A stretch of 64,000 nucleotides of DNA from the NCBI GenBank assembly GCA_015233405.1, contig JADFXT010000007.1, positions 390-64,389 on the forward strand. Direction: 5' to 3'. The DNA is from Candidatus Omnitrophota bacterium (GTDB taxonomy: Bacteria > Omnitrophota > Gorgyraeia > Zapsychrales > Zapsychraceae). Each line of letters starts with the position of its first letter. Within the stretch, counting starts at the first letter, position 1. A program made the translations under genes and the position numbers. The notes under the pieces are model-generated. The model had not been told where the DNA came from. It did no database searches and was given only the letters and a program-made list of their open reading frames with translations. Shown here in pieces: positions 38,764 to 59,100 of the stretch.

Positions 38764-38793
38764 TTGGCAAATATAATAAATATATTTTATACT
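38764..38793 (+). promoter_or_regulatory. Candidate promoter of the giant-gene-1 leader
   Basis: TTGGCA (38764-38769), an 18-nt spacer and TATACT (38788-38793). The same architecture is conserved upstream of the second leader (TTGGTA / TATACT at 49783-49812). Confidence 0.35.
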
Positions 38794-38948: not shown

Positions 38949-38989
38949 GGGGAAGCTTATGAAGTAAAAGCGATATAAAGAATGTTTTT

Positions 38990-39097
38990 GTCATCCCCGC
39001 AATTTTTAGGCGGGGATCCACAAGGGTTGAAGACATGGATTCCCGATAGAGGATTTCGGGAATGACAGCTGAAGGTGAAGATCGCGGGAATGACAGC
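38990..39097. repeat. Cluster of GC-rich REP-like hairpins in the leader of giant gene 1
   Basis: ATCCCCGC-9 nt-GCGGGGAT (8-bp stem), ATTCCCGA-9 nt-TCGGGAAT (8-bp stem), and a half-site CGCGGGAATGACAG. The GTCAT(C/T)CCC...GGGAATGACAG family recurs at 50017-50143 and 62184-62260. Confidence 0.7.
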
Positions 39098-39149
39098 AGT
39101 GAAAAAGGAATGACCAGTGTAGTTTAGGACGAAGAAACGGGGGCAATAG

Positions 39150-42100
39150 ATGTTTAGGGGGCAAGGCACAACAAGAAGTAACATACTAAAGACTATTAGT
39201 CTTATAGTTCTTTTTATTTTTATCCCTCAGACTTTATTCGCTCAAGTGGTTTTATCCGGCGGGGTTACTCTGCCTACGCCCGGCACGATGGTGTCTTTAA
39301 GCCAGCCGTTTCATCCCGCGGTAGTCAAAGGCCTGAAAGTTTATCCGGACAATCCGCTACGTTTTGATTTCATATTGGATAAAGGCGACGCCTTTAGCCA
39401 ATATGACCCTGAGCGACCAACGGGAGCTCAAGGGTTACAACTGAAAAAAGAATCCGAGAAGCTCATTAAATATTTCCTCGCCTCCTTGACCATTCCCGAG
39501 AAAGACCTGTGGGTCAACTTATCTCCGTATGAAAAAGACCGCATTATCCCTGAGGCCTTTGGCCAGACGGACATGGGCCGAGATCTCTTGGCGCAGGATT
39601 ATATCTTAAAACAGATCACGTCATCCTTGATGTACCCGGAAAGTAAATTGGGAAAGAAATTTTGGGATGAAATTTATAAAAAATCGTATGAGCTTTATGG
39701 TGTAACGAACGTGCCGGTCGATACATTTAATAAAGTCTGGATTGTTCCCGATAAAGCGGTTGTGTATGAGAACCAAAACCGCGCGTTTGTGGTTGAGGCA
39801 AAATTGAAAGTGATGTTGGAGGAGGACTATGTTGCTGCGCAACAGACTAAAGACCATAGACTCCAGACGATAGACCAGCCTTCGGCTGAAAAAAGGTCTG
39901 TGGTCTCTGGTCTAGGGTCTTCAGTCTCAGACCTGACAAGGTCTGTTATTCTTCCCGCGATTGAAAAAGAAGTCAACGAAGGCCAGCAATTCGCCCAGCT
40001 ACGGCAGGTTTATTATTCGCTGATCCTTGCTACCTGGTTTAAGCGAAACTTAAGAGAGAGTATTTTTGGAAAAGCCTATGTCGGCAAAAATAAAATTGCC
40101 GGTGTGGATATTAAAGATAAGGAAATCAAAGAGAAGATCTATGCCCAATATTTGGAATCTTTTAAGAAGGGTGCTTACAACTATATTAAAGAAGAATATG
40201 ATCCGGCGACGAAATCTGTGATTCCCAGGAAATATTTCTCCGGCGGGTTTGGGTTCGAGAAGATGGACGCTGCGATGACAACCACAAACAATTACTCCGA
40301 TCTGCTTAAAAATACGGCAGGTCTTGTTGTCATCGAGAGTAAGATTGATAAAACAACGGCAAATATGAGCCATGCAGAAGCCATCAAGACGCGGGTCGTC
40401 AAAGATAGGGATTGGCCTCAGGAGTATTTAAAAGGGCATGTTTATGTATTAATTAAGAAAGCCGATTTCGTCTTGCCTGTCACCGAGACTGTGGACGAGG
40501 CGATGACGGGTATTGCTACGAAGTTTGTCGACGGGATTGGAAATTTGACAGTCCTGCGTCGGCTGGGTGATGCCAGACATGTGGTTTACGTCATGAGAGA
40601 GATGAGCACAAACAAAACCTATTTCTTAAAGATTTTGCCGAATGAGCTTTTTGCTGAGGAATGGCTTCATTACCGGTTAGCCAAACGCTTAAAGGTCAAT
40701 ATTCCACGGTTTTTCAATGTGTCGCCGGAATTTTATCAAGACATGATTGGCGTTCCTCAATCCCTTCGCTCGCCAGGAACATCGCGCGGCATTATTACTT
40801 CTGATGTGAACGAAATGGGGATTGATGATCTTCTGGAGAAGCAAGGTTCCGGGCTTGAAGCCGCTTTTGTTTTTATTCAATTTTCTTTGCACCTGGATGT
40901 TGAATTCGACGGAAATCTCAATTCCGTTATGCCCACTATTGCGGGGAAACAGAGGTTCATTCTTTATGATTTTGGCGACACGTTCCCGTCATTTTGGATT
41001 ACGAATACCCCGCTTAGGGACACAGAATACACAAAGCAAAATGTGAAGACCCGGGTTTCTCAGAAATGGGAGTTGTATAAGGATAGGATTGACCCGCAAC
41101 GTTTAATCGAAGCAATCCGTCAGTTGATTTCCTTGACGCCGGATGAAGTAAAGGAAATGGCGCTCGAGAGCGGGTATTCATCTGACCAGATTGATTTGGC
41201 CCGATTCGAACGCCGTAAAAAGGAATTGATCCCGGAGATCATCACTGTCCTCGAAGAAGCGCAGAAAGACTCGGCCATGATGACCTGGTCGGTGAAAAGT
41301 CTAGCTGCCTTAGGATTGACATCTTTAGCGGCGTTCAGTTTATTTGTCTCGCCTGTTTCTGGTCGAGAACATGTGTCCATTTCAAAGCCCGCGATAACCA
41401 TGGGTATCGGCGCTCAAAGAAATGTTGACCTGTCGGGCAAGGTTTTTAATGTTACCCCTGCTCAATATGAAGATGCTTACAACATGCCGCCTTTGTGGCG
41501 GTCTTTTTCATATCCTTTAGGAGAAGAAGGCAGAGACCTTTCCTCATTTAAGTCGCTCACTCTTTCCGTCGAGGGGCACGGAAATGTTTTTATTGAATTT
41601 GAAGACCAGGGCAATCCGCGCCAGCGGGCCTCAAGTCCTGTCTATACTGTGCGCGATGGCAAAGTGGTCATAGACGTCGAGCAATTGAGGATAAATTTCC
41701 CTCATGTGAATTTTCAGAAAATAAGAGAAATCATCGTCAACGTCGGAAATCGTTTCTATGATATTGAACTCAATGCTCCCGGCGCCGACATCAAAGTTAC
41801 TGGGACCCCTCAATTTAGCCAAGAGAACGTTAGTCATTTTAATCCCGAGCAGGCACTATCCCAGCTGCCAACGGCCCAGCAGATCGAAAATCAGCATAGC
41901 CAACAGCGACAGCAGTTATTCGAGTCATTGACGCTTCCCGACGGGCATCTTGTCCAACAGTCGGATGCATTATCCCATGGATTTTTTGGCGGAAGAATTC
42001 AAGCTGTTAAGGAATTGCGTGACAAGGTCTTGAACAAAGCTTCAGACCGTCGGGATGCTTTGACGCTTTTACGGCATGAGCTTTTTAATCCGGCCCAGAA

Positions 42101-45100
42101 TACCAATTTACGAGCATATATCTATTATCTTTTGAAAGATGTCTTAAAAGCCGGGCTTACGTTCGATGAGGAAAGTCTCCTCGAGAATTTTTTGACCAGA
42201 TCTTATAAGGTCACTGACCCTATTGCCGTCAAGTTCCCGTACATTAAAGCGGATCAGACGAAACCGGATTTTTATGAATTCCAGTTAAACGGCGGCCGGT
42301 TCGACGGAAATGGTTATCTTTACGGCGTGGAAGGCTTGCCGGTCCCAGTCGAACATATGGTCGAGCGTATTGTTGACGGGCGGACAATGGAGCGTCTAGC
42401 GTATTGGTCGATTCTAATGAACATCGACCCGCTTAAGATGACATTTCCTATTATTTATACGGAATCGTTGTTGGGCGCTTTTCCGGAAAAACAGTTTAAT
42501 ATCATGTGCATTCATAGTCCGGACATCAACGCTCAGTTAAGCCCGCAGAATATCGCCTTAAGAGACCGGCTTCTTTCCCAATTTTCTTCAAACAATCCGG
42601 AAGATTTCTTGATGAATAAGATCATTGTTACCGGACTGATCTTGATGCAGGACGGTTTTAATGTGCATACGAACAACGGCAGTCTGGCTTCTCGTCTTCA
42701 AGGTTATAACGGTTACGGATGGCTTAAAATTGGCGACGAGACCGTGAATATGGCTAGAGATCCGAGAATCGGTAAAAGAGCGGCTTTGATCGGTAATAGT
42801 CTTGATCCGAAATTCAAAGATATTGTTAACGCTGTAGCCAAAAAAATAGGATATCAAGTCCCGCGGCTTCCACAAAATTTGAAGGGTTACACGGTTGGGA
42901 TAAAAAACATCGTCTCGCTTGCTTCTGTATCTGGAAAACAAGGGGACTTTGCGATGACTGTTTCCGCGCCCCAGATGTTCGGTCATCGAGGAGCTTTTGA
43001 TGTCAGCCAAGGCATCTTTGAAAATAGTCTTGAGTCCTTTAGACGAGCAATGGTGATGGGCTTGGATGGTTTTGAATTAGATGTTCGTTTAAATGAAAAC
43101 GGCGTTTTGATTGTTGTTCATCCTAAGGCGGCCAGCACAGTAAAGACCCCGACTTTCCAGGAAGTTTTTGATTTGGTAAAGAATTCCAAAATCCAGTTAC
43201 AGGTCCATATTCAGGACATGAACAGCGTCAATAAGGTTGTTGAATTCATTGCGCAGAATAAATTTGAAAAGAGAGTGACGATCAGCTCGACAAACCTGGA
43301 CATATTAAAAAAGGTGCGCAGCCGGAACCAAACCATAGCGACGGCCTTTATCCTTAAGGACCTAGCCACTACGAAGTTGTTGTTAAGAGATGCCCAAGAG
43401 GCGAAAATTACTTTGTTGGATTTATCGCTGCGTGATCCTCGAGACATCTTAACCAAGGATGTCGTCGATCTGATTCATTCAGCAGGAATCAAAGTGAACG
43501 CCGGATTTAAGTTGTTAGACGAACAAACAGCTCAAAAAATGGTCGGGTTTGGCGTCGACAGAATTATATCTGAATCTCCAGAGACCATGAAGAATCTTAA
43601 GGATTCACTCGCAAAGGTTGATAAAGCGATGTTGGCAGGAAAAATGTTTAGAAAATTCTTATGGTTTTTTGCCGTGCCGTTTATCTTTCAGATGACGACG
43701 CCGGCTGTAGTGTCAGCGCAGAATCTGAATATTAAACAAGCTAATGTGACATTTTCTGTTCCCCTTACTTACAAAAATGGATTTTCACCTGATTTCAGTA
43801 ACTCTAATTTTTCTGTTTCTGTCAAAACAAACATAGCGACAGCCAATGTTTGGACGACGGGATTTTTAAAACATTTTTATGGTTCGGCCAAGCTGGCCAA
43901 CAATAATTTTACTGTAAACGAAAAGACATTAGCTCAAATAAAAGTAGGGTTAGGTTTAATTAGCGATGAAGGATTAGGAGAAGCCACAAAAGAATTTGCT
44001 GCAACAGGACTTAAAAAGTTTGTTGGAAGTGTTGACCGTGCCATAGTAACGGACTCGAAGGCTGTTCAGCGGCCGCTGGTTGACAATCCGATTGATCCGG
44101 TGAAAGCTAAACAATGGGTCGCGGCGCAAGGAGCTTCAGAGATTCGTGACCTTGCTCAGTTTTTACTTAATCATGTGACGCATGTTTCGCAAAAGGAATT
44201 TGAAACGGCGCTTCAAGAAACCGTCAATGATTTTAATGCCAACATGGGCGACAAACCGTATATTTTAGTGTTTCCGTCGGAGAATGAAGATCGAAGTATC
44301 GGGTGGACATATCAATTGGCTTTGGAGAAAGGATTAAAACCGGCTCAGCATGTCATAAGATTGGATCAGCTGGATGTAGCACAACAGATCAGTAAAACGG
44401 GCGTTCACGACATTGTCTTGATAGATGATGCTGTTTATTCCGGACATCAAATGTTATCTCATGTCCGCAAATTATTTAAGGCGATGCGTAAAGACAGCCT
44501 GGACAGTAGCGATTTTAATTTTCATTTTGTTACGCCGTTTATGTCTGCTCATGTTGAGGAAAAATTCTTTTCACAACTTCGAAGCTTTCATTATAAAGCC
44601 ATTTTTAAAGCCCTCTTTAAAGGATCTCGAAGGTCAGAGGGGAGAACGGTATTTTATAAACACCGTTCTATGCCGAATTTGTCACAGATTTTCCGTTCTG
44701 AACCGAAGCGTGAGGCCTTGTTTAAACAGCTCGTCGATATGCCTAAAATATTGTATGAATTTATGACGTTAACTTATTTTCAGCATAAAGTCGCTGATGG
44801 TCTTTCAATGGTCGATTGGCTTTCTAAAGGGTCTGTGCATACGGAATTTGTCATTGCAGGGTCAGTGTATAAAGTTAAAGAAAACGAAAAGAATATCAAA
44901 GCAATCCGATTTATTCCCGAAACAATCCCTCCTTATGAAAAGAATTATTTAGAGAAAGTCCAGGGCACAGCCGGTAGCGAAGCCGACCGTGCCATGGCGA
45001 CGGCTTCGACGACGGTGCAGCGGCCGCTGGTCGATAATCCTATTGATGTTGAAAAATCCAAACAATGGGTCGCGGCGCAGGGGACTCCGGAACTTCGCGA

Positions 45101-48100
45101 CCTTGCGCAGTTTCTCTTAAATCATGTGACGCACATTACGCAAAAGGAATTTGAAGCGGCGCTTGAGAACATGGTCAATGATTTTAATAGCAAGTTAGGT
45201 GACAAGCCGTATGTTTTAATAATGCCGAGGGACAAAGGAGAGCGTAGTGAATCGTGGACATATCAGCTGGCTTTGGAAAAAGGGTTAAAACCTGCGCAAT
45301 ATATTATCAAGACAGATGGAGGCGTATTGTCTTATGACCAAAGAATTTTAAAAGATGTCAAAAATGTTGTCTTCATCGATGATGCTTTCTATTCGGGAAC
45401 ACAGGTGCTCAATGCGTCCCAGGCGTTGCTAAGTCATATAACGGTTTTCGATCCCCAAGATATTAATATTCATTTCCTCACGCCGTTTATGACATCTTTT
45501 GCTCAGAATAAGATCCTAACCAATCCCAAAGCTTTTGTTTATCAGCATCAGACAATGCCGACCATATCGGACATTCTTGCCTCTAATGCTGAGTATGAGA
45601 AATTATTTAAAACTCTCATTTATGAAAATATTGACCGTGGATATCCAGGCATAACGCTAACGTATTTCCAACATAAAGTGGCTGATTCCGTTTCAGTCCT
45701 CAGTTGGGTCTTTGGTGGCTATGTTTATGAACAAAAACGTAAAGTGAGCAATCAGACAATTCCCTTTATTCCCGGGACCTTTCCTCCTTATACAGAGGGT
45801 TATTTAAACATCATCAAGATGTATTCATCGAATGCCGTTAAAAACAATGCGGATGGGGCTATGACCACATCTTCGACGGAAGTTCAACGTCCGTTGAAGG
45901 ACAATCCGATCGATATGGAAAAAGCCAAGCAATGGGTCGAGGCGCATAAAGACCCGCATTTGCGTGACCTTGCGCAGTTCCTCTTAAGTCATGTCACGCA
46001 TGTCTCGCAAAAGGAATTCGAAGAAGCGCTCCAAGAAACCGTCGATGATTTTAATAGCAAGATAGGCGACAAACCGTATGTTTTGTTGCTCCCGCAGTGG
46101 AACGGGAATCGCAGTGAATGGTGGACGTATCAGCTGGCTCTGGAAAAAGGCTTAAAGCCGGCAAAGGATATTATTAAGATGGCTGCCCAAGGGGCTTCGT
46201 ATAACTCTTATCTAGCCATGGTTCAACAAATTCGGGACGCGGGAAAAGATGTTGTCCTTATTGACGATGCGGTGTATTCGGGAGTGCATATGTTAGATAT
46301 TGTCCAGCGTTTGTTCGGGGACACATGGGGCAATAACCCGGACAGTCGCGATTTGAATTTTCATTTCGTTGCGCCGTTTATGTCGACGAATATTGAAGAA
46401 AGAATTTTTGCAGATTCGAATCGTTCCGGGAACAGGAACGTGTATTTTTATAAACATCGTTTTATGCAGACATTGTCGGAGATTTTCCGTTCTGAGCCTG
46501 AGCGGCGGAAATGGTTTGAAATATTTTTTGGCATGATCGACTATTTTTATTCCTATAGGACGTTAACGTATTTTCAGCATAAAGTCCCGGATTTTCTTTC
46601 GATGTTTGATTGGATCACTCAGGGCAATATTTATGAAGAAAGACAAGGGGCTCTGGAACGGGATGCGGCCATTAAATTCATTCCTGAAACCATCCCGCCT
46701 TATGAGGAGGATTATTTAAAGAAAATAAAGTCTTCTTCATCGACGGATAAGGCGATGGCGGCGCAATCTGCCGTCCAGCGGCCGGTGGTGGATAATCCGA
46801 TTAATTGGAAGAAAGCCAATCAATGGGTCGCGGCGCAAGGAACGCAGGAACTTCGTGGTCTTGCGCAGTTTCTCTTAAATCATGTGACGCATGTCTCGCA
46901 AAAGGAATTCGAAGAAGCGCTGCAGGAAACCGTGAATGATTTTAATAGCAAGATAGGCGACAAACCCTATATCTTGCTTCTTCGAACAAGAAAAGGAATC
47001 CGCAGTGAATGGTGGACGTATCAGCTGGCTCTGGAAAAAGGCTTAAAGCCGGCAAAACATATTATTAAAGTCGGATTCCCCAGAATTGAAAATAAGCCTT
47101 CAGCTTGGTTAGAAAAATATTTTCAGGCCATTATTAAGCAAATGAAGGCAACAGGGATAAAGGATGTTGTCCGCATAGATGACGCGGTTTATTCGGGGCT
47201 CAATATGGAATCCGATATCCGAAATTTATTGTGGGCAGATAATATGAGAAATGATAATGATTCATTCTGGACGATAGATGAGTATCGTCAGGGTACGGAC
47301 GGGTTTAAGCTGCATTTCGTTGCGCCATTTATGTCCAGCGTTGGAGAAGACAAGCTCAAGGGATTAAATTCTCAGAAAGTGTCGATTTATCAGCATCGTT
47401 CTATGAAAACATTGCCGGAAATCTTTCATTTTGAGCCTGAACAAGAGAAAGTATTTAAAAAATTATTTGGCGGGATATATGCCGACGTAACACTGACTTA
47501 TTTTCAGCATAAAGTTCCTGACCATATTTCCACGCTCAATTTTGTTACGGAAGGGAATGTTCCTAAGAAAGAAAACGGGCACTTATTACGAGCAAGTCCT
47601 TCCATTCGTTTTATTGCTAAAACCATTCCTCCCTACGAGAAGAATTATTTAAAGCGAATAGCTTTCAAACGATTTAAAGAATCTTTGATTGGCATGTTTA
47701 AGCGTAAACATGATCGTGCCATGACGACGGTCCAGCGGCCGGTGGTCGATAATCCTATTGATGTTAAAAAAGCTAAAAAATGGGTCGAAGCGCAAGGGAC
47801 TCCGGAGCTACAGGATTTTGCTCGATTTTTATTGAATCATGTGACCCATATTTCACAGAAAGAATTTGAAGACGCCCTTCAGGAAGCTGTAAATGATTTT
47901 AATAACAAAATCGGCGATAAGCCGTATATTCTTCTTCTTCCGGCGGATAAAGAGGATCGCAGCGATGGATGGACGTATCGTTTAGCTTTGGAAAAGGGAT
48001 TAAAACCGCCGAAACATATCATTAGGGACAAAAGGAATTATTCATCTGTCATCCAAGAGATTCATGACACCGGCGTTAAAGATATTGTGGTCATGGATGA

Positions 48101-49757
48101 TGCTGTTTATACGGCGACACATATATTAGGGAGTGTGGAGCACACGTTTTCTTGGTATGGCAATAGTATTTATAAGGACTCAAATGATTTTCAGGTGCAC
48201 TTTGTTGCGCCGTTTATGTCCAAGGATATCGAGAAAAGAATTTTTTCACAGTTAAAGGATTATAACGTCGGACAAATATTTGTTCATCAGCATCGCGTTA
48301 TGGAGACTTTACCGGAGATTTTCCGTTCTGAGCCTAAATACAAGAGGATCTATGAGAGAATTTTTAACGAACTTGATTCTAGCGACTCTTATGTCACATT
48401 GACTTATTTTCAGCATAAAGTCCCTGATAACGTTTCAGCTCTGGGATACGTCATGGATGGGATTGTTTTTGAAAAAACGTTTCAACATGTCGTTCGTTCC
48501 ATTCAATTTATTCCTAAAACCATTCCTCCCTATGAAGAGAATTACTTAGAGCAAATAGCTTTCAAGCGATTAAAAGAATCTTTGATTCGCATGTTTAAGC
48601 GTAAGCATGATCGTGCCATGACGACGGTCCAGCGGCCGGTGGTGGACAATTCGATTGATCTGGTGAAAGCCGAACAGTGGGTTGCCGCGCACAAAGATCC
48701 ACGGATACGAGATCTTGCCCAATTCTTGCTTGATCATGTCAATCATGTGACGCAGAAAAAATTTGAAGAAGCATTGCAGGAAACCGTCGATGATTTTAAC
48801 GCCAAGATGGGCGACAAGCCGTATGTTTTGCTTGTTCCCTCATGGAGAGGAGACCGCAGCGAATGGTGGACCTATCAGCTGGCTTTAGAGAAAGGATTAA
48901 AACCGGCTAAAAATATTATCCGAATGGGAAAAACAGATTTGCGTGATGGGATGGATGTTTTGAAAGAATATTCTCAGGATATCCTTAAGCAAATCCGCGC
49001 CACAGGCGTTGTGGATATTGTTGTGATGGACGATGCCGTTTATACAGGACAACGGATATTAGAAAATCCAAGAATTTTATTACATGACAAGCATATTAAC
49101 CCACAGGAAACAAAGGATTTAAATTTCCATGTAGTTACGCCATTTATGTCTGTTGGCCTGGAAGAGAAGCTCACTCAGATGCGACAATCTTATTATGATG
49201 GAGGACAGATCTTTGTTTATAAACATCAAACTATGCCGACGATGGTAAGCATTTTCCAATCTGACCTGAAACGTAAAGCTTTGTTGGAAGAGTTTTTCCC
49301 TCATTTGGAAGAAGGTTTTCCGTATCTTACTCTGACCTATTTTCAGCATAAAGTTCCTGATGAGTTGTCGCTGTTTTATTGGGTTTTAAAAGGTAAGATT
49401 TATCAAAAAGATATTCATAAGGAAAGACCTTTGTGGATTCAGTTCATTCCTCCAACAGTCCCTCCTTATGAAGAAAATTATTTAGAAAAAATTAAGGCTG
49501 CTTCAGCGACGGATAAGGCGATGGCGACAACAAACGCGAAATATGGCGGTATTGATTTTAATCCTGAAAAAATGGATCTTCAGGTGAATGGGAGCGGTAA
49601 TGCCGAGTTGAAGGCCTTAAGCCCGGCCGCACTGGAGGAATTGAAGAATGCCCCGGGATTTACGCCGGTCATCATTAATATCAAGCCTGTGGACAGCCTG
49701 CCCGCGTTCTTGGGCCTGTCCCAAGCCCAGGTGGATGCTTCACTTTCAAAGATCTAA
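39150..49757 (+). CDS. Giant bracket-family protein 1 (3,535 aa): signal peptide, conserved N-domain, protein-kinase-like region, TM, large unknown region, GDPD-like domain, TM, 6 tandem PRTase-like modules, conserved C-terminal GGIDFN domain
   Basis: An uninterrupted 10.6-kb ORF with the signal peptide LIVLFIFIPQTLFA-QV. The kinase-like region has YFLKI, HLDVEFDGN and YDFGD (about 40509-41240). The GDPD-like region is GHRGAF..ENSLESF...GFELDVRL..NGVLIVVHP (about 42975-43600). There are six units beginning VQRP(L/V)(V/K)DNPI. The C-terminus is GGIDFNPEKMDLQV...GFTPVIINIKPVDSLPAFLGL. Confidence 0.85.
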   Translation: MFRGQGTTRSNILKTISLIVLFIFIPQTLFAQVVLSGGVTLPTPGTMVSLSQPFHPAVVKGLKVYPDNPLRFDFILDKGDAFSQYDPERPTGAQGLQLKKESEKLIKYFLASLTIPEKDLWVNLSPYEKDRIIPEAFGQTDMGRDLLAQDYILKQITSSLMYPESKLGKKFWDEIYKKSYELYGVTNVPVDTFNKVWIVPDKAVVYENQNRAFVVEAKLKVMLEEDYVAAQQTKDHRLQTIDQPSAEKRSVVSGLGSSVSDLTRSVILPAIEKEVNEGQQFAQLRQVYYSLILATWFKRNLRESIFGKAYVGKNKIAGVDIKDKEIKEKIYAQYLESFKKGAYNYIKEEYDPATKSVIPRKYFSGGFGFEKMDAAMTTTNNYSDLLKNTAGLVVIESKIDKTTANMSHAEAIKTRVVKDRDWPQEYLKGHVYVLIKKADFVLPVTETVDEAMTGIATKFVDGIGNLTVLRRLGDARHVVYVMREMSTNKTYFLKILPNELFAEEWLHYRLAKRLKVNIPRFFNVSPEFYQDMIGVPQSLRSPGTSRGIITSDVNEMGIDDLLEKQGSGLEAAFVFIQFSLHLDVEFDGNLNSVMPTIAGKQRFILYDFGDTFPSFWITNTPLRDTEYTKQNVKTRVSQKWELYKDRIDPQRLIEAIRQLISLTPDEVKEMALESGYSSDQIDLARFERRKKELIPEIITVLEEAQKDSAMMTWSVKSLAALGLTSLAAFSLFVSPVSGREHVSISKPAITMGIGAQRNVDLSGKVFNVTPAQYEDAYNMPPLWRSFSYPLGEEGRDLSSFKSLTLSVEGHGNVFIEFEDQGNPRQRASSPVYTVRDGKVVIDVEQLRINFPHVNFQKIREIIVNVGNRFYDIELNAPGADIKVTGTPQFSQENVSHFNPEQALSQLPTAQQIENQHSQQRQQLFESLTLPDGHLVQQSDALSHGFFGGRIQAVKELRDKVLNKASDRRDALTLLRHELFNPAQNTNLRAYIYYLLKDVLKAGLTFDEESLLENFLTRSYKVTDPIAVKFPYIKADQTKPDFYEFQLNGGRFDGNGYLYGVEGLPVPVEHMVERIVDGRTMERLAYWSILMNIDPLKMTFPIIYTESLLGAFPEKQFNIMCIHSPDINAQLSPQNIALRDRLLSQFSSNNPEDFLMNKIIVTGLILMQDGFNVHTNNGSLASRLQGYNGYGWLKIGDETVNMARDPRIGKRAALIGNSLDPKFKDIVNAVAKKIGYQVPRLPQNLKGYTVGIKNIVSLASVSGKQGDFAMTVSAPQMFGHRGAFDVSQGIFENSLESFRRAMVMGLDGFELDVRLNENGVLIVVHPKAASTVKTPTFQEVFDLVKNSKIQLQVHIQDMNSVNKVVEFIAQNKFEKRVTISSTNLDILKKVRSRNQTIATAFILKDLATTKLLLRDAQEAKITLLDLSLRDPRDILTKDVVDLIHSAGIKVNAGFKLLDEQTAQKMVGFGVDRIISESPETMKNLKDSLAKVDKAMLAGKMFRKFLWFFAVPFIFQMTTPAVVSAQNLNIKQANVTFSVPLTYKNGFSPDFSNSNFSVSVKTNIATANVWTTGFLKHFYGSAKLANNNFTVNEKTLAQIKVGLGLISDEGLGEATKEFAATGLKKFVGSVDRAIVTDSKAVQRPLVDNPIDPVKAKQWVAAQGASEIRDLAQFLLNHVTHVSQKEFETALQETVNDFNANMGDKPYILVFPSENEDRSIGWTYQLALEKGLKPAQHVIRLDQLDVAQQISKTGVHDIVLIDDAVYSGHQMLSHVRKLFKAMRKDSLDSSDFNFHFVTPFMSAHVEEKFFSQLRSFHYKAIFKALFKGSRRSEGRTVFYKHRSMPNLSQIFRSEPKREALFKQLVDMPKILYEFMTLTYFQHKVADGLSMVDWLSKGSVHTEFVIAGSVYKVKENEKNIKAIRFIPETIPPYEKNYLEKVQGTAGSEADRAMATASTTVQRPLVDNPIDVEKSKQWVAAQGTPELRDLAQFLLNHVTHITQKEFEAALENMVNDFNSKLGDKPYVLIMPRDKGERSESWTYQLALEKGLKPAQYIIKTDGGVLSYDQRILKDVKNVVFIDDAFYSGTQVLNASQALLSHITVFDPQDINIHFLTPFMTSFAQNKILTNPKAFVYQHQTMPTISDILASNAEYEKLFKTLIYENIDRGYPGITLTYFQHKVADSVSVLSWVFGGYVYEQKRKVSNQTIPFIPGTFPPYTEGYLNIIKMYSSNAVKNNADGAMTTSSTEVQRPLKDNPIDMEKAKQWVEAHKDPHLRDLAQFLLSHVTHVSQKEFEEALQETVDDFNSKIGDKPYVLLLPQWNGNRSEWWTYQLALEKGLKPAKDIIKMAAQGASYNSYLAMVQQIRDAGKDVVLIDDAVYSGVHMLDIVQRLFGDTWGNNPDSRDLNFHFVAPFMSTNIEERIFADSNRSGNRNVYFYKHRFMQTLSEIFRSEPERRKWFEIFFGMIDYFYSYRTLTYFQHKVPDFLSMFDWITQGNIYEERQGALERDAAIKFIPETIPPYEEDYLKKIKSSSSTDKAMAAQSAVQRPVVDNPINWKKANQWVAAQGTQELRGLAQFLLNHVTHVSQKEFEEALQETVNDFNSKIGDKPYILLLRTRKGIRSEWWTYQLALEKGLKPAKHIIKVGFPRIENKPSAWLEKYFQAIIKQMKATGIKDVVRIDDAVYSGLNMESDIRNLLWADNMRNDNDSFWTIDEYRQGTDGFKLHFVAPFMSSVGEDKLKGLNSQKVSIYQHRSMKTLPEIFHFEPEQEKVFKKLFGGIYADVTLTYFQHKVPDHISTLNFVTEGNVPKKENGHLLRASPSIRFIAKTIPPYEKNYLKRIAFKRFKESLIGMFKRKHDRAMTTVQRPVVDNPIDVKKAKKWVEAQGTPELQDFARFLLNHVTHISQKEFEDALQEAVNDFNNKIGDKPYILLLPADKEDRSDGWTYRLALEKGLKPPKHIIRDKRNYSSVIQEIHDTGVKDIVVMDDAVYTATHILGSVEHTFSWYGNSIYKDSNDFQVHFVAPFMSKDIEKRIFSQLKDYNVGQIFVHQHRVMETLPEIFRSEPKYKRIYERIFNELDSSDSYVTLTYFQHKVPDNVSALGYVMDGIVFEKTFQHVVRSIQFIPKTIPPYEENYLEQIAFKRLKESLIRMFKRKHDRAMTTVQRPVVDNSIDLVKAEQWVAAHKDPRIRDLAQFLLDHVNHVTQKKFEEALQETVDDFNAKMGDKPYVLLVPSWRGDRSEWWTYQLALEKGLKPAKNIIRMGKTDLRDGMDVLKEYSQDILKQIRATGVVDIVVMDDAVYTGQRILENPRILLHDKHINPQETKDLNFHVVTPFMSVGLEEKLTQMRQSYYDGGQIFVYKHQTMPTMVSIFQSDLKRKALLEEFFPHLEEGFPYLTLTYFQHKVPDELSLFYWVLKGKIYQKDIHKERPLWIQFIPPTVPPYEENYLEKIKAASATDKAMATTNAKYGGIDFNPEKMDLQVNGSGNAELKALSPAALEELKNAPGFTPVIINIKPVDSLPAFLGLSQAQVDASLSKI
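44064..49530 (+). repeat. Six tandem in-frame copies of the ~285-300-aa module in giant gene 1
   Basis: Module consensus: VQRPVVDNPID..KAKQWV.AQ...LRDLAQFLLNHVTHV(S/T)QKEFE.ALQETVNDFN.K(M/I)GDKPY(V/I)L.......RSEWWTYQLALEKGLKPA..II....(D/N)(V/I)V.(I/M)DDA(V/F)Y(S/T)G.....L(N/K).HF(V/L).PFM(S/T)......Y(K/Q)H(R/Q).M.T...I(F/L).....LT(L/Y)FQHKV(P/A)D.....FIP.T(I/F)PPY(E/T)..YL. (Some copies, such as the second, deviate at individual positions.). Confidence 0.9.
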
Positions 49758-49782: not shown

Positions 49783-49812
49783 TTGGTATTTTTTCTAATA
49801 AAATTATATACT
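49783..49812 (+). promoter_or_regulatory. Candidate promoter of the giant-gene-2 leader
   Basis: TTGGTA (49783-88), an 18-nt spacer and TATACT (49807-12), at the same spacing from the aptamer as in copy 1. Confidence 0.35.
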
Positions 49813-49824: not shown

Positions 49825-49916
49825 TAGTGAACCGAAACGGCAAACCCATCGTAAGGTGGGGACGCAAAGTTAAAGGGTCCAAAAGGAATAGGACAGCCTG
49901 ACTACCGAAGTCGCTG
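49825..49916 (+). promoter_or_regulatory. c-di-GMP-I (GEMM-I) riboswitch-like aptamer, copy 2
   Basis: The core GGCAAACCCAUCGUAAGGUGGGGACGCAAAG is identical to copy 1. Differences from copy 1 fall in loops or preserve pairing: GGAUAGCC becomes GGACAGCC, turning a G-U pair into G-C opposite GGGUCC. Confidence 0.75.
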
Positions 49917-49935
49917 AATGAGTAAAGAATTTTAA

Positions 49936-49975
49936 GCCTATTCCTAATGATGCACGGGAATAGGCATTTTTTTTT
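49936..49975 (+). terminator. Intrinsic terminator serving as the expression platform of riboswitch copy 2
   Basis: Perfect stem GCCTATTCC (49936-44) / GGAATAGGC (49957-65) followed by T9. The competing GGAATAGG lies in the aptamer at 49885-92. Confidence 0.7.
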
Positions 49976-50016
49976 GGGGAAGCTTATGAAGTAAAAGCGA
50001 TATAAAGAATGTTTTT

Positions 50017-50143
50017 GTCATCCCCGCAATTTTTAGGCGGGGATCCACAAGGGTTGAAGACATGGATTCCCGACCTGTCTGCCGACAGGCAGGTAGAAGA
50101 TTTCGGGAATGACAGCTGAAGATGAAGATCGCGGGAATGACAG
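50017..50143. repeat. Cluster of GC-rich REP-like hairpins in the leader of giant gene 2 (with a nested extra palindrome)
   Basis: The units are the same as at 38990-39097, but the loop of the second hairpin carries an additional ~20-nt palindromic insert, CCTGTCTGCCGACAGGCAGG (50073-50092). Confidence 0.7.
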
Positions 50144-50195
50144 CAGTGAAAAAAGGATTACCAGTAGTTTAAGGGTGGAAAAAAGGGGGCAATTG

Positions 50196-53100
50196 ATGTT
50201 TAGGGGGCAAGGCACAATAAGAAGTAATATATTAAAGACTATTAGTCTTATTCTCCTTTTTATTTTTATCCCTCAGACTTTATTCGCTCAAGTGGTTTTA
50301 TCCGGCGGGGTTACTCTGCCTGCGCCCGGCACGATGGTGTCTTTAAGCCAGCCGTTTCATCCCGCGGTAGTCAAAGGCCTGAAAGTTTATCCCGAGAATC
50401 CCCTAAAGTTTGATTTCATATTGGATAAAGGCGACGCCTTTAGCCAATATGACCCTGAGCGACCAACGGGAGCTCAAGGGTTACAACTGAAAAAAGAATC
50501 CGAGAAGCTCATTAAATATTTTCTCGCCTCCTTGACCATTCCCGAGAAAGACCTGTGGGTCAACTTATCTCCGTATGAAAAAGACCGCATTATCCCTGAG
50601 GCCTTTGGCCAGACGGACATGGGCCGGGATCTCTTGGCGCAGGATTATATCTTAAAACAGATCACGTCATCTTTGATGTATCCCGAGGACAAGTTGGGTA
50701 AGAAATTTTGGGATACGATTTACAAGAAGGCTTATGAGTTGTATGGAAGAACGGACATCCCGGTGGACACCTTTAATAAGGTCTGGATCGTTCCGGATAA
50801 GGCTGTGGTCTATGAAAACCCCGCGCCCAAAGTTGGTGAAGCGACAGCTTTCGTCGTAGAAGCAAAATTAAAGGTTATGTTGGAGGAGGACTATGTTGCT
50901 GCGCAACAGACTAAAGACCATAGACTCCAGACGATAGACCAGCCTTCGGCTGAAAAAAGGTCTGTGGTCTCTGGTCTAGGGTCTTCGGTCTCAGACCTGA
51001 CAAGGTCTGTTATTCTTCCCGCGATTGAAAAAGAAGTCAACGAAGGCCAGCAATTCGCCCAGCTACGGCAGGTTTATTATTCTTTGATCCTCGCTACCTG
51101 GTTTAAGCGAAACTTAAGAGAGAGTATTTTTGGAAAAGCCTATGTCGGCAAAAATAAAATCGCCGGCGTTGATATTCAAGATAAAGACGAGAAGCAAAAG
51201 ATTTATAACCAATACCTCGAGGCATTCAAGAAAGGCGCTTATAACTACATCAAAGAGCAGTACGACCCGTCGACGAAGACCATTGTCCCGCACAAATATT
51301 TTTCCGGCGGTTTTGGGTTTGAGGGCATGGATTCCGCGATGACAACCACAACGAATGCTGCTGATTTAGGCCCTCAACAAGGCCTTGTTGTCATTGAGAG
51401 CAATATCAAGAAAACAACAAAAGAAGGCTCCGAGATATCAGGCGTTCCAGAAGCGGGCGCGGCTATGGCGACGGCTCCGTCGGCCGTCCAGCGGCCGGTG
51501 GTGGATAATTCAATTGATCCTAAAAAAGCCGAACAGTGGGTCGAGGCACAAGAACCAGATTATCGTGACCTCGCTAGATTCTTACTGAATCATGTGACGC
51601 ATGTTAGCCAAGAGGAATTTGAGGCGGCACTTCAGGAAACCGTTAATGATTTTAACGCCAAGATGGGTGACAAACCATATGTTTTAGTGCTCTCGCGGCA
51701 AGGACGTAGTGAAGAGTGGACGTATCAACTCGCATTGGAAAAAGGATTAAGACCTGCAAAGCATATCATTAAATTAGCTAATGGCGTCATGCCAGATAGC
51801 GCGCGGACGCTTTTGCAGAAAATATCGGATGTCGTGTTCATGGATGATGCTGTTTATACGGCATCACTGCTGACATCAACAGTATCGGGCTTTGTGCAAA
51901 GCCTGCCTTGGGCGAAAGTGCGAAATCTTAATTGCCATCTTTTAATACCGTTTATGACTTCTTTTGGTGAACAGAGAATTTCTTCCCGGGATCTCAATAT
52001 CAAGCTTTATAAGCACCATTTAATGCCGACGCTGCCGGAAATTTTGCGTTCTGACGTTGGGCGGAATTGGGCACCAGAGTTTGAAAAGATTTTTCATGGT
52101 TCTGTGGATAAAACATTTTCTGGTATGACACTCACATATTTTCAGCATAAAATTCCAGATTTTATTTCCGCGCTTGCTTGGCTTTTTAACGGCGAAACAT
52201 TAAAAAAAGGATTGGTCGGGCCTAATTATTCAACTAATTGGGTTCGATTTATTCCTGAAACCATCCCGCCGTATGAGAAAGATTATTTAAAGAGAATCCA
52301 AGAGCTCCCGTCTGACGCGGCCATGGCGACGCAATCTGCCGTCCAGCGGCCGGTGGTTGACAATCCGATTGATATGGCTAAGGCGAAACAATGGGTCGAG
52401 GCGCAAGAACCAGATTATCGCGACCTCGCTCAATTCTTACTGAATCATGTGACGCATGTTAGCCAAGAGGAATTTGAGGCGACACTTCAGGAGGCTGTTA
52501 ATGATTTTAACGCCAAGATGGGCGATAAACCGTATATTTTAGTGTACTCGTGGAAAGGAAAAAAACGGAGTGAATGGTGGACGTATCAATTGGCTTTAGA
52601 AAAAGGATTAAAGCCGGCGAAGCATATCATCAATTCAGGCGGCGGCTTGTTATCAACAAGTGACCAGATGCTTTTGCAGGAAACGCCGGATGTTCTGTTC
52701 GTAGATGATGCGGTTTATTCCGGAACGCAGATGTCGATAACAGTAAACGGATTTTTTGGCGACATAACTTCACTAAACAAAGCAGGTCTTCGTTGCCATT
52801 TTCTTGTGCCATTTATAACTTCTTCGGGGCAGGAGAAAATTTCTTCCGTGGCGCTAAATTCTAAGTTTTATAAACACCGTTTGATGCCGATGCTGTTGGA
52901 AATTTTAAATTCTGACATTAGCCAGAAGCGGATATCAGAATTTGAGAAGATTTTTGGCCCTAAAAATATTCATGGAATGACGCTCACGTATTTTCAGCAT
53001 AAAGTTCCTGATTCGGTCTCTATGCTTTTGTGGATTTCCGGGGGGAATGTACTTACAAACTACAATCAAAATGCCATACGTACGGGAATGATTCGTTTTA

Positions 53101-56100
53101 TTCCTTCGACTATTCCTCCTTATGAGAAAGATTATTTAAAGAAGATTCAAGAGCTCCCCTCTGATGCGGCGATGGCGACAGCTCCGACGGCTGTTCAACG
53201 GCCGCTGGTTGATAATCCGATTGATGTTAAAAAAGCTAAGAAATGGGTCAAGGCGCAGGATCCTGATTTACGTGAGCTTGCGCAATTCTTGCTTGACCAT
53301 GTGACCCATATTACGCAGAAAGAATTTGAAGAAGCTCTGCAGGAGGCTGTCGATGATTTTAATGCCAAGATGGGCGACAAACCATATATTTTAGTGCTCT
53401 CGTGGAAAGGAAAAAAACGAAGTGAATGGTGGGCCTATCAGTTGGCCTTGGAGAAAGGATTAAATCCGGCGAAACATATCATCAATTTAGATGAGGTAGG
53501 TGATAACGAAATATCAAAAAGCGATCAGATGCTTTTGAAGGACGCCCCGGATGTTGTTTTCCTAGATGATGCCATGTATTCCGGAACGCAGATGTCGGAA
53601 ACAGTGGAAGCTTTGGTGCAGAAGATGCCCTTTAGGTGGAACCCGGAAAATCTTAATTATCATTTTCTTATACCATTTATGACTTCATTTGGTAAGAAAG
53701 AAATTTCTTCCAAAATTCGACCTAAGTTTTACAAGCACCGTTTGATGCCGACGCTCCAGGAAATTTTTAGTTCTGATGCTGGGCGAAAGAGGGTATTAGA
53801 GTTTGAAGATATTTATCGTGACTCTGTGGAAGGAAAGAAATTTGCTGGAATGACGCTCACATATTTTCAGCATAAGGTTCCCGACCAGGTCTCGATGGTT
53901 TCGTGGATTTCCAATGGAGAAATATTGTCAAGTGATATTGTTAGGCGTGCGAATAAAATGCCATTTATCCCTGAAACAATCCCGCCTTATGACGAGAATT
54001 ATTTAGAGGAAATTAAGGCTGCTTCATCCCGCACGGCAGGCAGCGAATCTGACCATGCTATGGCAACGGCTCCGACGACTACTGTCCAGCGGCCGGTGGT
54101 GGACAATCTAATTGATGTTGAAAAAGCTAAGAAATGGGTCGCAGCGCAAGGAACTCCGGAGATTCGCGAGCTTGCCCAATTCCTACTTGACCATGTGACT
54201 CATGTTAGTCAAAAAGAATTTGAAGCGGCGCTTCAGGAAACCGTCGATGATTTCAATAAGAAGATGGGCGATAAGCCGTATGCTTTTGTTATCTTGAGGC
54301 CGTCGTGGAAAGGGGACCGCAGTGAATTTTGGACCTATCAGTTGGCTTTGGAAAAAGGGTTAAAACCAGCCAAATATATTATTAAGACGGAAGAAGATCT
54401 TTCAATCTTTGTTCAAAGGGATTTGAGGAATGTAAATGATATTGTCTTCATGGATGACGCGGCTTATTCCGGAGGACAAATATTAGCTAAAAGAAACAGA
54501 TTTCTTTTTAACTCAAAGGCTCTGAATTTCAACAATCTTAATATGCATTTTGTTATGCCATTTATGTCGTCTTATGCCAAAAATAAACTCCTTTCTCAGC
54601 CGCATGTCTTTATTTATAAGCATCATTCTATACCGACATTGTCGGAAATTTTTAGCTCTGATGTTGGGAAAAAACAGAAGCGGGTGTTTGATTCTCTGGG
54701 TAAGAGATTTGCAGGTCTCACACTGACTTATTTTCAGCATAAGGTCCCTGATTATTTTTCCGCTTTTCAATGGCTTTTTGAGGGCGTTGTAGTGAAAGAA
54801 AAGTCGAAAGCGCAAATTAAATTTATTCCTGAAACAATTCCGCCATATGAAAAAGATTATTTAAAGAAGATACGGATTTCTTTATTTAAGGGGAAGAAGA
54901 GAAAAGCTGATGCCGCGATGGTGACGCAATCTGCCGTCCAGCGGCCGGTGGTGGACAATCCAATTGATATGGCTAAGGCGAAACAATGGGTCGAGGCGCA
55001 TAAGGACCCTGCTGTCCGCGACCTTGTCGAGTTTTTACTTAACCATGTGACCCATGTTACACAAAAGGAATTTGAAGCGGCGCTTCAGGAAACCGTCAAT
55101 GATTTTAACTCCAAGATGGGCGACAAGCCGTATGTTTTATTACTTCCGGCGTGGAAGAGAGGCCGCAGTGAGCTGTGGACGTATCAATTGGCTTTGGAAA
55201 AGGGATTAAAACCGGCAAAGCAGATCATAGAAGCTGGAGATAATCTGAATCTAGTTCAACAGATTCGCTCGACGGGCATAAAAGATTTAATTCTGATGGA
55301 TGATGCGGTCTATTCGGGAAAGCAGACATTAGATAAAGTTTACGATGTATTTAGGTATGTGCAGAGCAGCGAACTAAACAACCGGGACCTAAATCTGCAT
55401 TTTGTTGCGCCGTTTATGTCTCTCGGGGTAGAGAACAAAATTTCTTCAGGTTTGCAACGATATAAAATAGGGGAAATGTTTGTTTATAAGCATCGTTCTA
55501 TGGAGACGTTGCCGGAGATTCTCCGTCATGAGCCCGAGCGTAAGGAAGTCTTCGAACAGTTTTATCCCTCTTTTGAGGATTATTATCAATATATTACGTT
55601 GACTTATTTTCAACATAAAGTTGCTGATAGCGTTTCAATGCTTCCGTGGCTTTCCGGAGGGAATGTATTGGAAATGGTAGGAGGCGGAAGAGAAGTCTCC
55701 TCTGTCAGAGTTAACTTTATCCCTGAGACAATCCCGCCTTATGACGAGAATTATTTAGAGGAAATTAAGGCTGCTTCATCCCGCACGGCAGGCAGCGAAT
55801 CTGACCATGCTATGGCGACGGCTCCGACGGTCGTCCAGCGGCCGGTGGTGGATAATCCTATTGATCCGGTGAAAGCTAAACAATGGGTCGAGGCGCATGA
55901 TCCGGAGCTCCGTGACCTTGCTCAGTTTTTGCTGAATCATGTAACTCATGTTAGCCAAGAGGAGTTTGAAGCGGCGCTGCAGGAAACTGTCAATGATTTT
56001 AACGCCAAGATGGGCGACAAATCGTATATTTTAGTGCTCTTGCGGCCAGGACATAGTGAAGAGTGGACGTATCAACTGGCTTTGGAAAAAGGATTAAAGC

Positions 56101-59100
56101 CGGCAAAACATATCATCAATTCAAGTGAAGCGAGTGATATTGCAATTAGAAAAAGAGACCAGAAATTTTTGCAGGAAACGCCTGATGTTGTGTTCATGGA
56201 TGATGTTGTTTACACGGCTGCACAGATGTCGTTAACAATAACACATTTTGTCGATAGCATGCCGTTGGAGCGTGCATCATCTCTTAATTATCATTTTCTA
56301 ATACCATTTATGACTTCTTTTGGTGAACAGAAAATTTCTTCTCGGGAGCTAAATTCCAAGTTTTATAAACACCGTTTGATACCGACGGTATCAAAGATCC
56401 TCCGTCTTGAGCCAAAACTTAAGAATTTGTATAAAAAGATTTATGAGCAAACAGTTTTTGGGAATTTCCCTGGCGTCGCGTTGACATATTTTCAGCATAA
56501 AGTTGCTGATAGGGTTTCAATGTCGGAGTGGATTTCAAAGGGTACGGTATTCAAGAAAAGATCTGGAATTTTCATTAATACCAGTAAGGTTTCGTTTATT
56601 CCAGATACAATTCCGCCGTATGAAGAGAATTATTTAGAGAAAATCAAGGCTTCCTCAGCTGATAGCGCCATGGCGACGGCTCCGACGACCGTCCAGCGGC
56701 CGGTGAAGGACAATCCGATTGATATGGAAAAGGCCAAACAGTGGGTCGAGGCGCAAGGGACACCAGAACTTCGCGACCTGGCACAGTTTCTCTTAAATCA
56801 TGTGACGCATGTCTCGCAAAAGGAATTTGAAGAAGCGCTCCAAGAAACCGTCAATGATTTTAATCGTAAGATGGGTGATAAACCTTATGTTTTATATCTT
56901 CCGCCGCACGGAGGTAACCGAAGCGAATGGTGGACGTATCAGTTGGCTTTGGAAAAAGGATTAAAGCCGCCTCAACGCGTTGTAAGAAGTTTTTCGAAAG
57001 AGGGCACAACATTCTTGGATGAAGCCAAGGACATTGTTCTTATTGACGATGCTATTTATACAGGATCAGAAATATCCGCATACGTTCTGGATGTCTTAAA
57101 CCATATGGGTTCCAAAGACGTTAACATCCATTTCGTCGCACCCTTTATGTCTGCCGGTGCCGAGAAAAGAGTGTTTCTTGAGTTGCTTCCGACGCGTTAT
57201 AGGACAATTCTTAAAAACTTTCTTACAGGATTTTTTAAAGGCGGAAAGATGGTTTTTTATAAACATCGCGCCATGCAAACATTGCCGCAGGTTTTTCGTG
57301 CCGAAAAGAAGCGTAAGGATTTGCTTAAACAGGTTCTCCAGACAAGCTCGTGGTCGTTACAACTTATGACATTGACTTATTTTCAGCATAAAGTTGCTGA
57401 TAGAGTTTCCTTGGTTAGCTGGCTTTCTAAGGGATGGGTTTATGGCAAAAGAGGCGAATTTACCAATGCTAGTATTAGTTTTATTCCTGAAACAATCCCG
57501 CCATACGACGAGGATTATTTAAAGAAAATCCAATCGAAACCTGTCGACGCTGCTATGACAGCCGTTCAGCGGCCAGTGGTCGATAATCCAATTGACCCGG
57601 TGAAAGCCGAACAGTGGGTCGAGGACCAAGAACCAGAGCTTCGTGATACGGCTAGATTTTTGCTTAATCATATGACGCATATCACTCAAAAGGAATTTGA
57701 AGAAGCTCTCCAGGAAACTGTAGATGATTTTAACAGCAAGATGGGTGAAAAACCGTATGTTTTGATCATTCCGACGTGGAATGGGGAACGTAGCGAATTA
57801 TGGACCTATCAGTTGGCTTTGGAAAAGGGATTAAAGCCCGCGAGTCACGTCATTAATTTAGATACAGTTCGGGGTGAAATAAAAAAGGCTGACTGGCCAT
57901 TTTTGCAGGAAACGCCTGATGTCGTTTTCATGGATGATGCTGTTTATTCTGCAGAGCATACCTTGTTAATGTTAGAAAATCTTTCAAAAAGAATTAATTC
58001 GCAAGATTACAAAGGTCTTCAGAGTCATTTTCTCATACCATTTATGACTTCTTTCGGAGAGAAAAGAATTTCTTCTCACGCGCCGAATCCCAGTTTTTAT
58101 AAGCACCGTTTAATGCCGACTTTATTGCAGATGTTGGATTCAGAAGAAGGGAAGAAATGGAGGCCGCAGATTGAAGGTTTTTTCAAGTACGATATGGAGA
58201 TGGAGCGTTTTGCTGGCGTAACGCTTACCTATTTTCAGCATAAAGTCCCCGATGGTCTTTCCGCATTTAAGTGGCCTTTCGAAGGAACTATCTTTAGGAA
58301 AAAGACAGGATGGAATTCGATTATGATGGCAGGTGATGAGCCGTTCATACCTGAAACCATTCCTCCTTATGATAAATATTATTTAAAAAGAATTCAGGCT
58401 TCCCGTCCGGACGCGGCGATGGCGACAGCTCCGACGGTGGCCCAGCGGCCGGTGGTCGATAATCCCATTGATATGGTTAAAGCTCATGAATGGATCCAGG
58501 CGCAGGGTCCGACTTTACGTAGCCTTGCGCAATTCTTGCTTGACCATGTGACCCACATTTCGCAAAAAGAATTTGAAGAAGCTTTGCAGGAAACAGTTGA
58601 TGATTTTAACAAAAAGATAGGCAACAAACCGTATATTTTAGTGCTCTTGCGGCTAGGACGTAGTGAAGAGTGGACATATCAACTGGCGTTGGAAAAAGGA
58701 TTAAAGCCGGCAAAGCATATCATCAATTTAAGGAATGGCCAAATGCCAGAATATGAGCAGACGCTTCTGCAGGAAATGCCGGACGTTGTGTTCATGGATG
58801 ATGCTGTTTACACGGCATCACTGACATCATCAACAGTATCGGGCTTTGAGGAAATGATGCCTTTGGTGAAATCACAAAATCTTAATTACCATTTTCTAAC
58901 GCCATTTATGACTTCTTATGGTGAAAATATCCTTCTTCACAAGGGGTCGAAACCTAACTTTTACAAACACCGTTTGATGCCGACGCTGTTGGAAATCTTA
59001 AATTCTGATATTAGCCAGAAGCGGATATCAGAGTTTGAGAAGATTTTTGGCCCTAAAGATATTCGTGGAATGACGCTCACGTATTTTCAGCATAAAATTC

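Follow-up and report, generated by a model that had tools for sequence, protein, structure and literature searches.

Whether two long genes that stand in tandem in an Omnitrophota genome each carry a c-di-GMP riboswitch of their own, in which direction such switches would act, and what the differences between the two leaders mean are the questions raised by the locus described here. It lies in a 64,000-nucleotide stretch of DNA, referred to below as the window, in which a leader cassette is present twice, at 38764-39149 and 49783-50195. Each cassette contains promoter-like boxes, an aptamer, a terminator and a REP-like leader of ~200 nt, and is followed by a gene of 3535 or 3974 codons, respectively. 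Most Omnitrophota are uncultured, and no regulation is known for their very long genes. In the two preprints on the giant genes of this phylum, whose products are defined as proteins of at least 7000 aa, and in Seymour et al. 2023, giant genes are linked to c-di-GMP only via neighbouring PilZ genes and GGDEF domains (10.1101/2023.11.21.568195), and riboswitches are not mentioned. By this definition the proteins encoded in the window, at 3.5-4 kaa, are long proteins and not giants.

The two long genes and their neighbourhood

The two genes have the following organization:

39150..49757, + strand: long gene 1, 3535 aa, with an N-terminal helix, an Omnitrophota-specific N-domain, a GDPD domain and 6 PRTase-CE repeats (ORF, Pfam)
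50196..62120, + strand: long gene 2, 3974 aa, with the same N-domain and 10 PRTase-CE repeats (ORF, Pfam)

The listed ORF start of gene 2, at 50109, is 29 codons upstream and in frame; the ATG at 50196 is the one that aligns with the start of gene 1. The GDPD (glycerophosphodiester phosphodiesterase) domain of gene 1 occupies residues 1272-1412, and the sequence matches in the PDB are to GDPD. The PRTase-CE repeats, each of ~283 aa, extend over 40900-49500 and 51000-62000 (+) and are ~45-49% identical between the genes. The N-domain, ~400 aa long (39150-40400, +), belongs to no Pfam family and often occurs several times per genome. With the N-terminal 417 aa of gene 1, 1641 homologues were found, nearly all of them from Omnitrophota and none more than 61% identical, so the host has no close sequenced relatives. 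When an AlphaFold model of the N-domain (pLDDT 70) was compared with the PDB using Foldseek, there was no significant match, the best one having E = 0.04 and a TM score of 0.10.

A type II secretion/type IV pilus cluster lies upstream and includes an ATPase with an MshEN domain (21738-23474, +). The N-terminus of this ATPase, LIGQILVEEGLVSHQQLESALKEQ, resembles the c-di-GMP-binding motif with the arginine replaced, and the protein may be a second c-di-GMP output nearby. Further upstream of the secretion cluster, at 9244-19446 (+), are Tc-toxin-like genes (SpvB; TcdB mid/N, RHS repeats, YD-shell).

A leader cassette present twice

The elements of the two cassettes, in order along the forward strand, are as follows:

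38764..38793, + strand: promoter-like boxes of copy 1, TTGGCA, 18 nt, TATACT (10/12 matches in a consensus scan)
38811..38899, + strand: c-di-GMP-I aptamer of copy 1 (Rfam match 38816-38893, 60.4 bits, E 9e-12)
38868..38875, + strand: proposed antiterminator 5' strand of copy 1, GGAAUAGG, in the P1b apex
38910..38948, + strand: intrinsic terminator of copy 1, GCCUAUUCCU, 10-nt loop, GGGAGUAGGC, A, U8 (sequence and fold)
38949..39149, + strand: post-terminator leader of copy 1, containing a REP-like composite at ~38989-39097 and, ahead of the ATG, GGGGG as a Shine-Dalgarno-like run
49783..49812, + strand: promoter-like boxes of copy 2, TTGGTA, 18 nt, TATACT
49825..49916, + strand: c-di-GMP-I aptamer of copy 2 (Rfam match 49830-49910, 62.3 bits, E 3e-12)
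49885..49892, + strand: proposed antiterminator 5' strand of copy 2, GGAAUAGG, mostly in a 10-nt P1b loop
49936..49975, + strand: intrinsic terminator of copy 2, GCCUAUUCCU, 10-nt loop, GGGAAUAGGC, A, U9 (sequence and fold)
49976..50195, + strand: post-terminator leader of copy 2, with a REP-like element and, at 50074-50093, an additional 20-nt palindrome

Homology between the copies runs from the -35-like hexamer through the aptamer, the terminator and the leader into ~1.2 kb of coding sequence, with 86% identity in the alignment of 38774-40357 with 49796-51418. A duplicated leader comprising boxes, aptamer, terminator and REP hairpins had been claimed in the original prediction, and both a re-reading of the sequence and this alignment bear the claim out; the T-tract ends that it placed at 38948 and 49975 are correct, and the octamer that it described as retained is indeed GGAAUAGG in each copy. 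The promoter-like boxes of copy 2 start 26 nt past the stop codon of gene 1. The terminator stems fold into 10 bp in both copies. A separate scan of 49500-50400 for terminator-like hairpins found none, and it also missed the riboswitch terminator, which has a 10-nt loop.

In the REP-like leader region, CGGGAATGACAGC occurs twice. The REP-like composite, which can be written as GTCATCCC..GGGGA..GGATTCCCG..CGGGAATGACAG, is found three times, at 38989-39097, 50027-50144 and 62184-62261, that is, in both leaders and just past the stop codon of gene 2.

Aptamer fold and ligand class

A search of the whole window with Rfam cmscan gave exactly two matches, both above the gathering score, and two more matches of the same clan, at or above their own cut-off, were hidden by clan competition (CL00126). 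The best model for both copies is RF03167 (c-di-GMP-I-GGC), whose gathering score of 59 is exceeded by the 60.4 and 62.3 bits listed above; our own covariance model R1 gives 94.3 bits for copy 1 and 93.0 bits for copy 2. The outer helix P1 is formed in copy 1 by UAGUGA (38811-38816) and UCGCUA (38894-38899), and in copy 2 by 49825-49830 and 49911-49916 (3' strand UCGCUG); according to the folds it extends past the Rfam model and reaches 6-8 bp in both copies. The P1a tetraloop is GUAA in both, and P1b lacks the asymmetric CUAAG/UAUG receptor seen in the RF01051 consensus.

The family RF01051, which includes Vc2 of Vibrio cholerae and Cd1 of Clostridioides difficile, shares with the window copies the three-helix aptamer, the GGCAAAC...GACGCAAAG core, the equivalents of G20, A47 and C92, the P1a GNRA tetraloop and the intrinsic-terminator platform. 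Cd1 is an OFF switch that promotes termination. The window copies differ from these systems in their short P1b without the tetraloop-receptor motif, in drawing the antiterminator strand from the P1b apex and 3' strand and not from P1, in their host, an Omnitrophota bacterium, and in their cargo of 3.5-4 kaa genes. With RF03167 they share the compact, receptor-less P1b and the modelled P1. A comparison of the consensus lines of RF03167 and RF01051, on which our choice of the GGC-defining position rests, reveals a single conserved core difference, GACGCGAA versus GACGCAAA (GACGC-G-AA versus GACGC-A-AA), at the equivalent of A47. Where the variant has G, both window copies have A: they read GACGCAAAG, and the match line is blank at this position. 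Riboswitches of the GEMM-Ib type, which bind 3'3'-cGAMP, have A at position 20. The window aptamers have the same fold and G at this position (38825 and 49839, in the context ACGGCAAAC). According to the cmscan alignments, the ligand-contact equivalents are thus G20 = G38825, A47 = A38852 and C92 = C38888 in copy 1 and G20 = G49839, A47 = A49866 and C92 = C49905 in copy 2; the roles of G20 and C92 have been described in PMC5888326, and those of G20, A47 and C92 in PMC11218506.

Because these equivalents are canonical, we file both copies, on their sequence, as ordinary c-di-GMP-I (GEMM-I) aptamers, neither of the GGC variant nor of the cGAMP type, and infer c-di-GMP as the ligand. What the RF03167 label reflects is the short P1b that lacks the receptor, rather than any change in the binding site. 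Near-identical aptamers at another locus, L082, score best on RF01051 (59.8 and 57.2 bits, gathering score 35), so the label does not discriminate.

Related leaders in Omnitrophota

Eighty genome loci encoding the gene 1 N-domain were screened with Rfam and with our own covariance model; these covariance models replaced a regular-expression screen for the core, which proved too strict and returned only L078 and one false match. In three of the loci (L016, L036 and L065) a c-di-GMP-I aptamer precedes the N-domain gene by 350-500 nt, and in L078 the aptamer lies ~1.9 kb upstream of the match. The association of aptamer and N-domain thus recurs but is sporadic. Four loci with the aptamer subtype of the window came out of one metagenome scan for a 23-nt core pattern, and a scan of viral contigs for the aptamer found none. 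Rfam aptamers number three in L081, two each in L083 and L082, and one in L084.

A covariance model was built from ten sequences and its twelve matches, 11 of them distinct, were aligned. Among the 11 distinct related aptamers, 96.6% of the cells are paired and 12 of the 19 pairs have changed on both sides; none of 500 shuffles comes up to these figures, and in slid controls 26-48% of the cells are paired. It should be noted that the model was also the basis of the alignment and that the double changes come mostly from the divergent L084, L078 and L036. The original prediction had named disruption of the helices in homologous leaders as a result that would count against it, and here the outcome favours it, as the related leaders keep the P1a and P1b helices of the three-way junction.

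Several aptamers of this kind stand in arrays. L081 (1743-1821, 6196-6274 and 10815-10892, -) and L083 (11-88 and 3578-3655, -), which belong to contig(s) Ga0206817_1074, carry at least five cassettes of promoter and aptamer, and each aptamer precedes its own protein of 1150-1500 aa with Ig-like or GDSL domains. A riboswitch per gene in tandem arrays of large secreted proteins is therefore a repeated layout in Omnitrophota. In these cassettes the P1 3' strand (CCAUGAAAA) contains the start codon, and the P1b apex contains a GGAGG-like run. Binding of the ligand should therefore block translation, which is the same repressive direction as the one proposed below for the window. A terminator-like hairpin with U6-7 is also found within the L081/L083 coding sequence, where it encodes PNL(F/L)RQGLGFLFF of the signal peptide.

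Two further arrangements were observed. In L079 (1061-1234, +), another of the 80 N-domain loci, a ~75-nt insertion between GGGGAC and GCAAAG splits an aptamer of the window subtype. This aptamer, in which A replaces G20, does not reach the Rfam gathering score and lies upstream of a neighbouring gene for a CheY-like response regulator; the complementarity between P1b apex and terminator arm is kept. The aptamers of L016 (2001-2200), L036 (1889-2075) and L065 (1886-2075; all +) form a second c-di-GMP-I subclass with a large P1b insertion, in which a conserved outer helix of GCCGAUAAAG with CUUUAUCGGC encloses the aptamer and a hairpin that varies between loci. The distal CUUUAUCGGC+U of L016 had been considered as a terminator competing with P1, that is, as an ON switch, and this candidate was dropped when L036 and L065 showed the conserved outer helix.

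Terminator, proposed antiterminator and probable direction of the switch

In every leader of the window type a hairpin with a U-tract follows 10-45 nt past the aptamer. In the window the terminator has no overlap with the aptamer, its 5' arm beginning 10-19 nt after P1, and the sole conserved alternative pairing joins the P1b apex and 3' strand to the terminator 5' arm. The strands concerned are:

Window leaders: apex GGAAUAGG, terminator 5' arm CCUAUUCC
L084: apex GAAGAAUAGG..GCCAAU, terminator 5' arm AUUGGCCUAUUCUUUC
L082a: apex UGGAUUAGGAU, terminator 5' arm AUCCUGAUACCA
L079: apex AAUUAGGAUAG, terminator 5' arm CUAUCCUUAAUU

In copy 1, GGAAUAGG is complementary to CCUAUUCC at 38911-38918, with a duplex energy of -15.7 kcal/mol; the corresponding duplex of copy 2 has -17.0 kcal/mol. 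Shuffle tests of the duplex, when confined to the two window copies, are weak (p ~0.11 and ~0.05). In a 5x5 matrix of duplexes, no row has a more stable partner than the leader's own, although there is a tie in the L079 column; the mean is -15.7 kcal/mol as against -11.0 kcal/mol for cross pairs, and by our own estimate the chance of this pattern in four independent lineages is ~0.004. A search for an antiterminator in L081, L083 and L082b found none better than shuffled controls, and these cassettes, in which the start codon is located in P1 instead, were left out of the terminator model.

The nascent transcript was folded as it stands immediately before synthesis of the terminator 3' arm, using nearest-neighbour energies, which ignore tertiary contacts. 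The antiterminator fold is then the minimum free energy (MFE) structure in both copies, with an MFE advantage of 1.8 kcal/mol in copy 1 and 8.4 in copy 2 (13.7 in L084 and 9.8 in L082a) and an ensemble advantage of 3.9 kcal/mol in copy 1 and 9.1 in copy 2. For the full-length transcript, the terminator fold is the MFE structure with or without the antiterminator, and any control would therefore need to be kinetic.

Computationally, two features of an OFF switch are present: a GC-rich hairpin followed by a U-tract, and an antiterminator that is exclusive with both aptamer and terminator. On the basis of these models we consider it rather probable that each of the tandem long genes has its own promoter-proximal c-di-GMP-I attenuator, which would most likely act as an OFF switch. 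Without ligand, the P1b apex and 3' strand, GGAAUAGG, would pair with the terminator 5' arm, CCUAUUCC, and with this antiterminator formed, polymerase would read into the ~200-nt leader and the gene. Binding of c-di-GMP would lock P1, P1a and P1b, and the terminator hairpin and U-tract would form, giving transcripts with ligand-induced ends at ~38948 and ~49975. It is from the freeing of the terminator arm by a ligand-stabilised aptamer that we infer the OFF direction. As only 26 nt separate the stop codon of gene 1 from the promoter boxes of gene 2, riboswitch 2 would also meet, and act on, read-through transcripts from gene 1. The original prediction had both long genes individually gated by the same second messenger; each does have its own c-di-GMP-class aptamer, terminator and promoter-like boxes, and the direction of the gating, which it did not give, is added here. 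The antiterminator advantage of copy 1 is small, and this copy could terminate constitutively; in copy 2 the octamer is mostly in an open loop of the folded aptamer, and the ligand might not fully exclude its pairing with the terminator arm.

Alternative readings of the cassettes

Three other readings compete with that of c-di-GMP-dependent attenuators that repress. The one we find hardest to credit, giving it a very small chance, is that the aptamers sense another ligand, either that of the GGC class or 3'3'-cGAMP: the best Rfam model is RF03167, and the related split aptamer of L079 has A at G20, but the window copies have A and not G at the sole core position that separates RF03167 from RF01051, keep G at the G20 equivalent, unlike the cGAMP-selective GEMM-Ib, and have in L082 near-identical counterparts that fit RF01051 best. 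It is also unlikely, though less so, that ligand binding turns the genes on, or that control is mainly translational. Among the c-di-GMP riboswitches found upstream of adhesin-like genes, many work in the ON direction, Bc2 (PMC11218506) being one of them, and a long post-terminator leader could hold more control elements. Against this reading stand the position of the terminator, which does not overlap the aptamer, so that the ligand cannot sequester a terminator arm, the nature of the only conserved alternative pairing, which connects the aptamer with the terminator 5' arm, and the distance of the start codon, ~200 nt past the terminator; the leader of copy 1 contains no further Rfam family, even at E <= 1.

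A similarly low probability attaches to the cassettes being constitutive attenuators or decaying relics that do not respond to ligand. In copy 1 the aptamer and the antiterminator are close in energy and termination may dominate regardless, and there is a precedent in Bc1 of Bacillus thuringiensis, a riboswitch with a similarly long platform that is barely responsive to c-di-GMP in vivo (PMC11218506). Bc1 shares with the window cassettes the ~200 nt between aptamer and start and the termination-based control; unlike them, it has two terminators and a GAAA tetraloop with receptor and lies upstream of a chemotaxis gene (PMC11218506), whereas each window cassette has one terminator followed by REP-like hairpins. 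What speaks against this reading is that the ligand-contact bases and the helices are all intact in both copies and that the subtype is conserved, with compensatory changes, on several Omnitrophota contigs. Repressing c-di-GMP-I attenuators remain our preferred reading of both cassettes.

Differences between the two copies

The four classes of difference that had been listed for the two leaders were all found again. In the apex of P1b (previously termed P2), copy 1 has CC-U-GGAAUAGG and copy 2 CC-AAAA-GGAAUAGG; U38877 corresponds to C49894, which turns a G.U into a G-C pair opposite GGGUCC; the linker of copy 2 has a 9-nt insertion, to which 4 substitutions can be added; and G38934 corresponds to A49960, turning a G.U into an A-U pair in the terminator stem, with T-tracts of 8 and 9 bases. 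Two statements need amendment. The aptamer core had been called identical, and this fails at G38859/A49873 in the internal bulge of P1b, which was overlooked. The apex change is present, but it is not purely one of the loop, since the replacement of U by AAAA removes two apical P1b pairs that can form in copy 1 (U:A and G.U). The same change lengthens the antiterminator of copy 2 to 9 bp (with A49884); U38877C strengthens the upper P1b stem of this copy, and G38934A gives it a perfect terminator. The net difference between the copies is ~5 kcal/mol in the modelled balance of antiterminator and aptamer (ensemble).

On the model energies we hypothesize that copy 1 should switch off at a lower c-di-GMP concentration than copy 2; the differences may equally be neutral. 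There is close to an even chance that the two copies are functionally equivalent products of recent duplication or conversion, with every difference due to neutral drift and no tuning. Of the four-fold sites compared between gene 1 and gene 2, 44 of 46 agree in codons 1-150, ~50% in codons 150-250 and 15 of 15 in codons 250-300, and such a mosaic is characteristic of a recent duplication or of gene conversion. Substitutions amount to 3 in the 89 nt of the aptamer and 1 in the 39 nt of the terminator, on a par with the neutral codon sites (2 in 46), and the 98 nt past the terminator are unchanged; between the copies, the aptamer is no better conserved than neutral sequence. Stem substitutions number just two, both of them transitions that swap a Watson-Crick for a wobble pair, and two such pairing-preserving changes would, by our own reasoning, be expected by chance about 1 time in 4. 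The homogenised block, the neutral-rate divergence of the aptamer and the small number of stem changes leave unsupported the original prediction's claim of selection on RNA structure rather than recent duplication. On the other side, the apex indel combined with both stem changes produces the modelled shift of ~5 kcal/mol, and the -35 and -10 hexamers are kept although 10 of the 18 spacer bases differ, which hints at constraint, that is, at some purifying selection on the cassette. Equivalence concerns the meaning of the differences and is compatible with both copies being working switches. In our preferred reading, too, the two cassettes are paralogues that owe their similarity to recent duplication or gene conversion.

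In the N-terminal coding sequence (39150-40400 versus 50196-51440), blocks of ~97-99% identity alternate with blocks of ~80%, and the synonymous sites match this pattern, which suggests gene conversion.

Implications for Omnitrophota

Riboswitches of the c-di-GMP-I class with a terminator platform are already well known before genes for large surface proteins, and in this respect the RNA biology of the cassettes is routine. The novelty lies in the host phylum and the cargo, in an antiterminator strand supplied by the P1b apex, in the recurrent layout of one cassette per gene and in the finding that the GGC model of Rfam captures aptamers with canonical binding bases. A c-di-GMP-I attenuator before long genes provides a testable input for them, with repression predicted at high c-di-GMP, and no culture of the organism is needed to assay short RNA constructs in vitro.

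It is conceivable, though on the models rather doubtful, that promoter and riboswitch together form a portable Omnitrophota module that is placed before large secreted or surface proteins and whose two copies in the window are tuned to different c-di-GMP thresholds by the apex indel and the two stem transitions. If this is true, a fall in c-di-GMP would release the two paralogous long proteins of the window from repression in sequence, and the expression timing of Omnitrophota long genes would become experimentally tractable.
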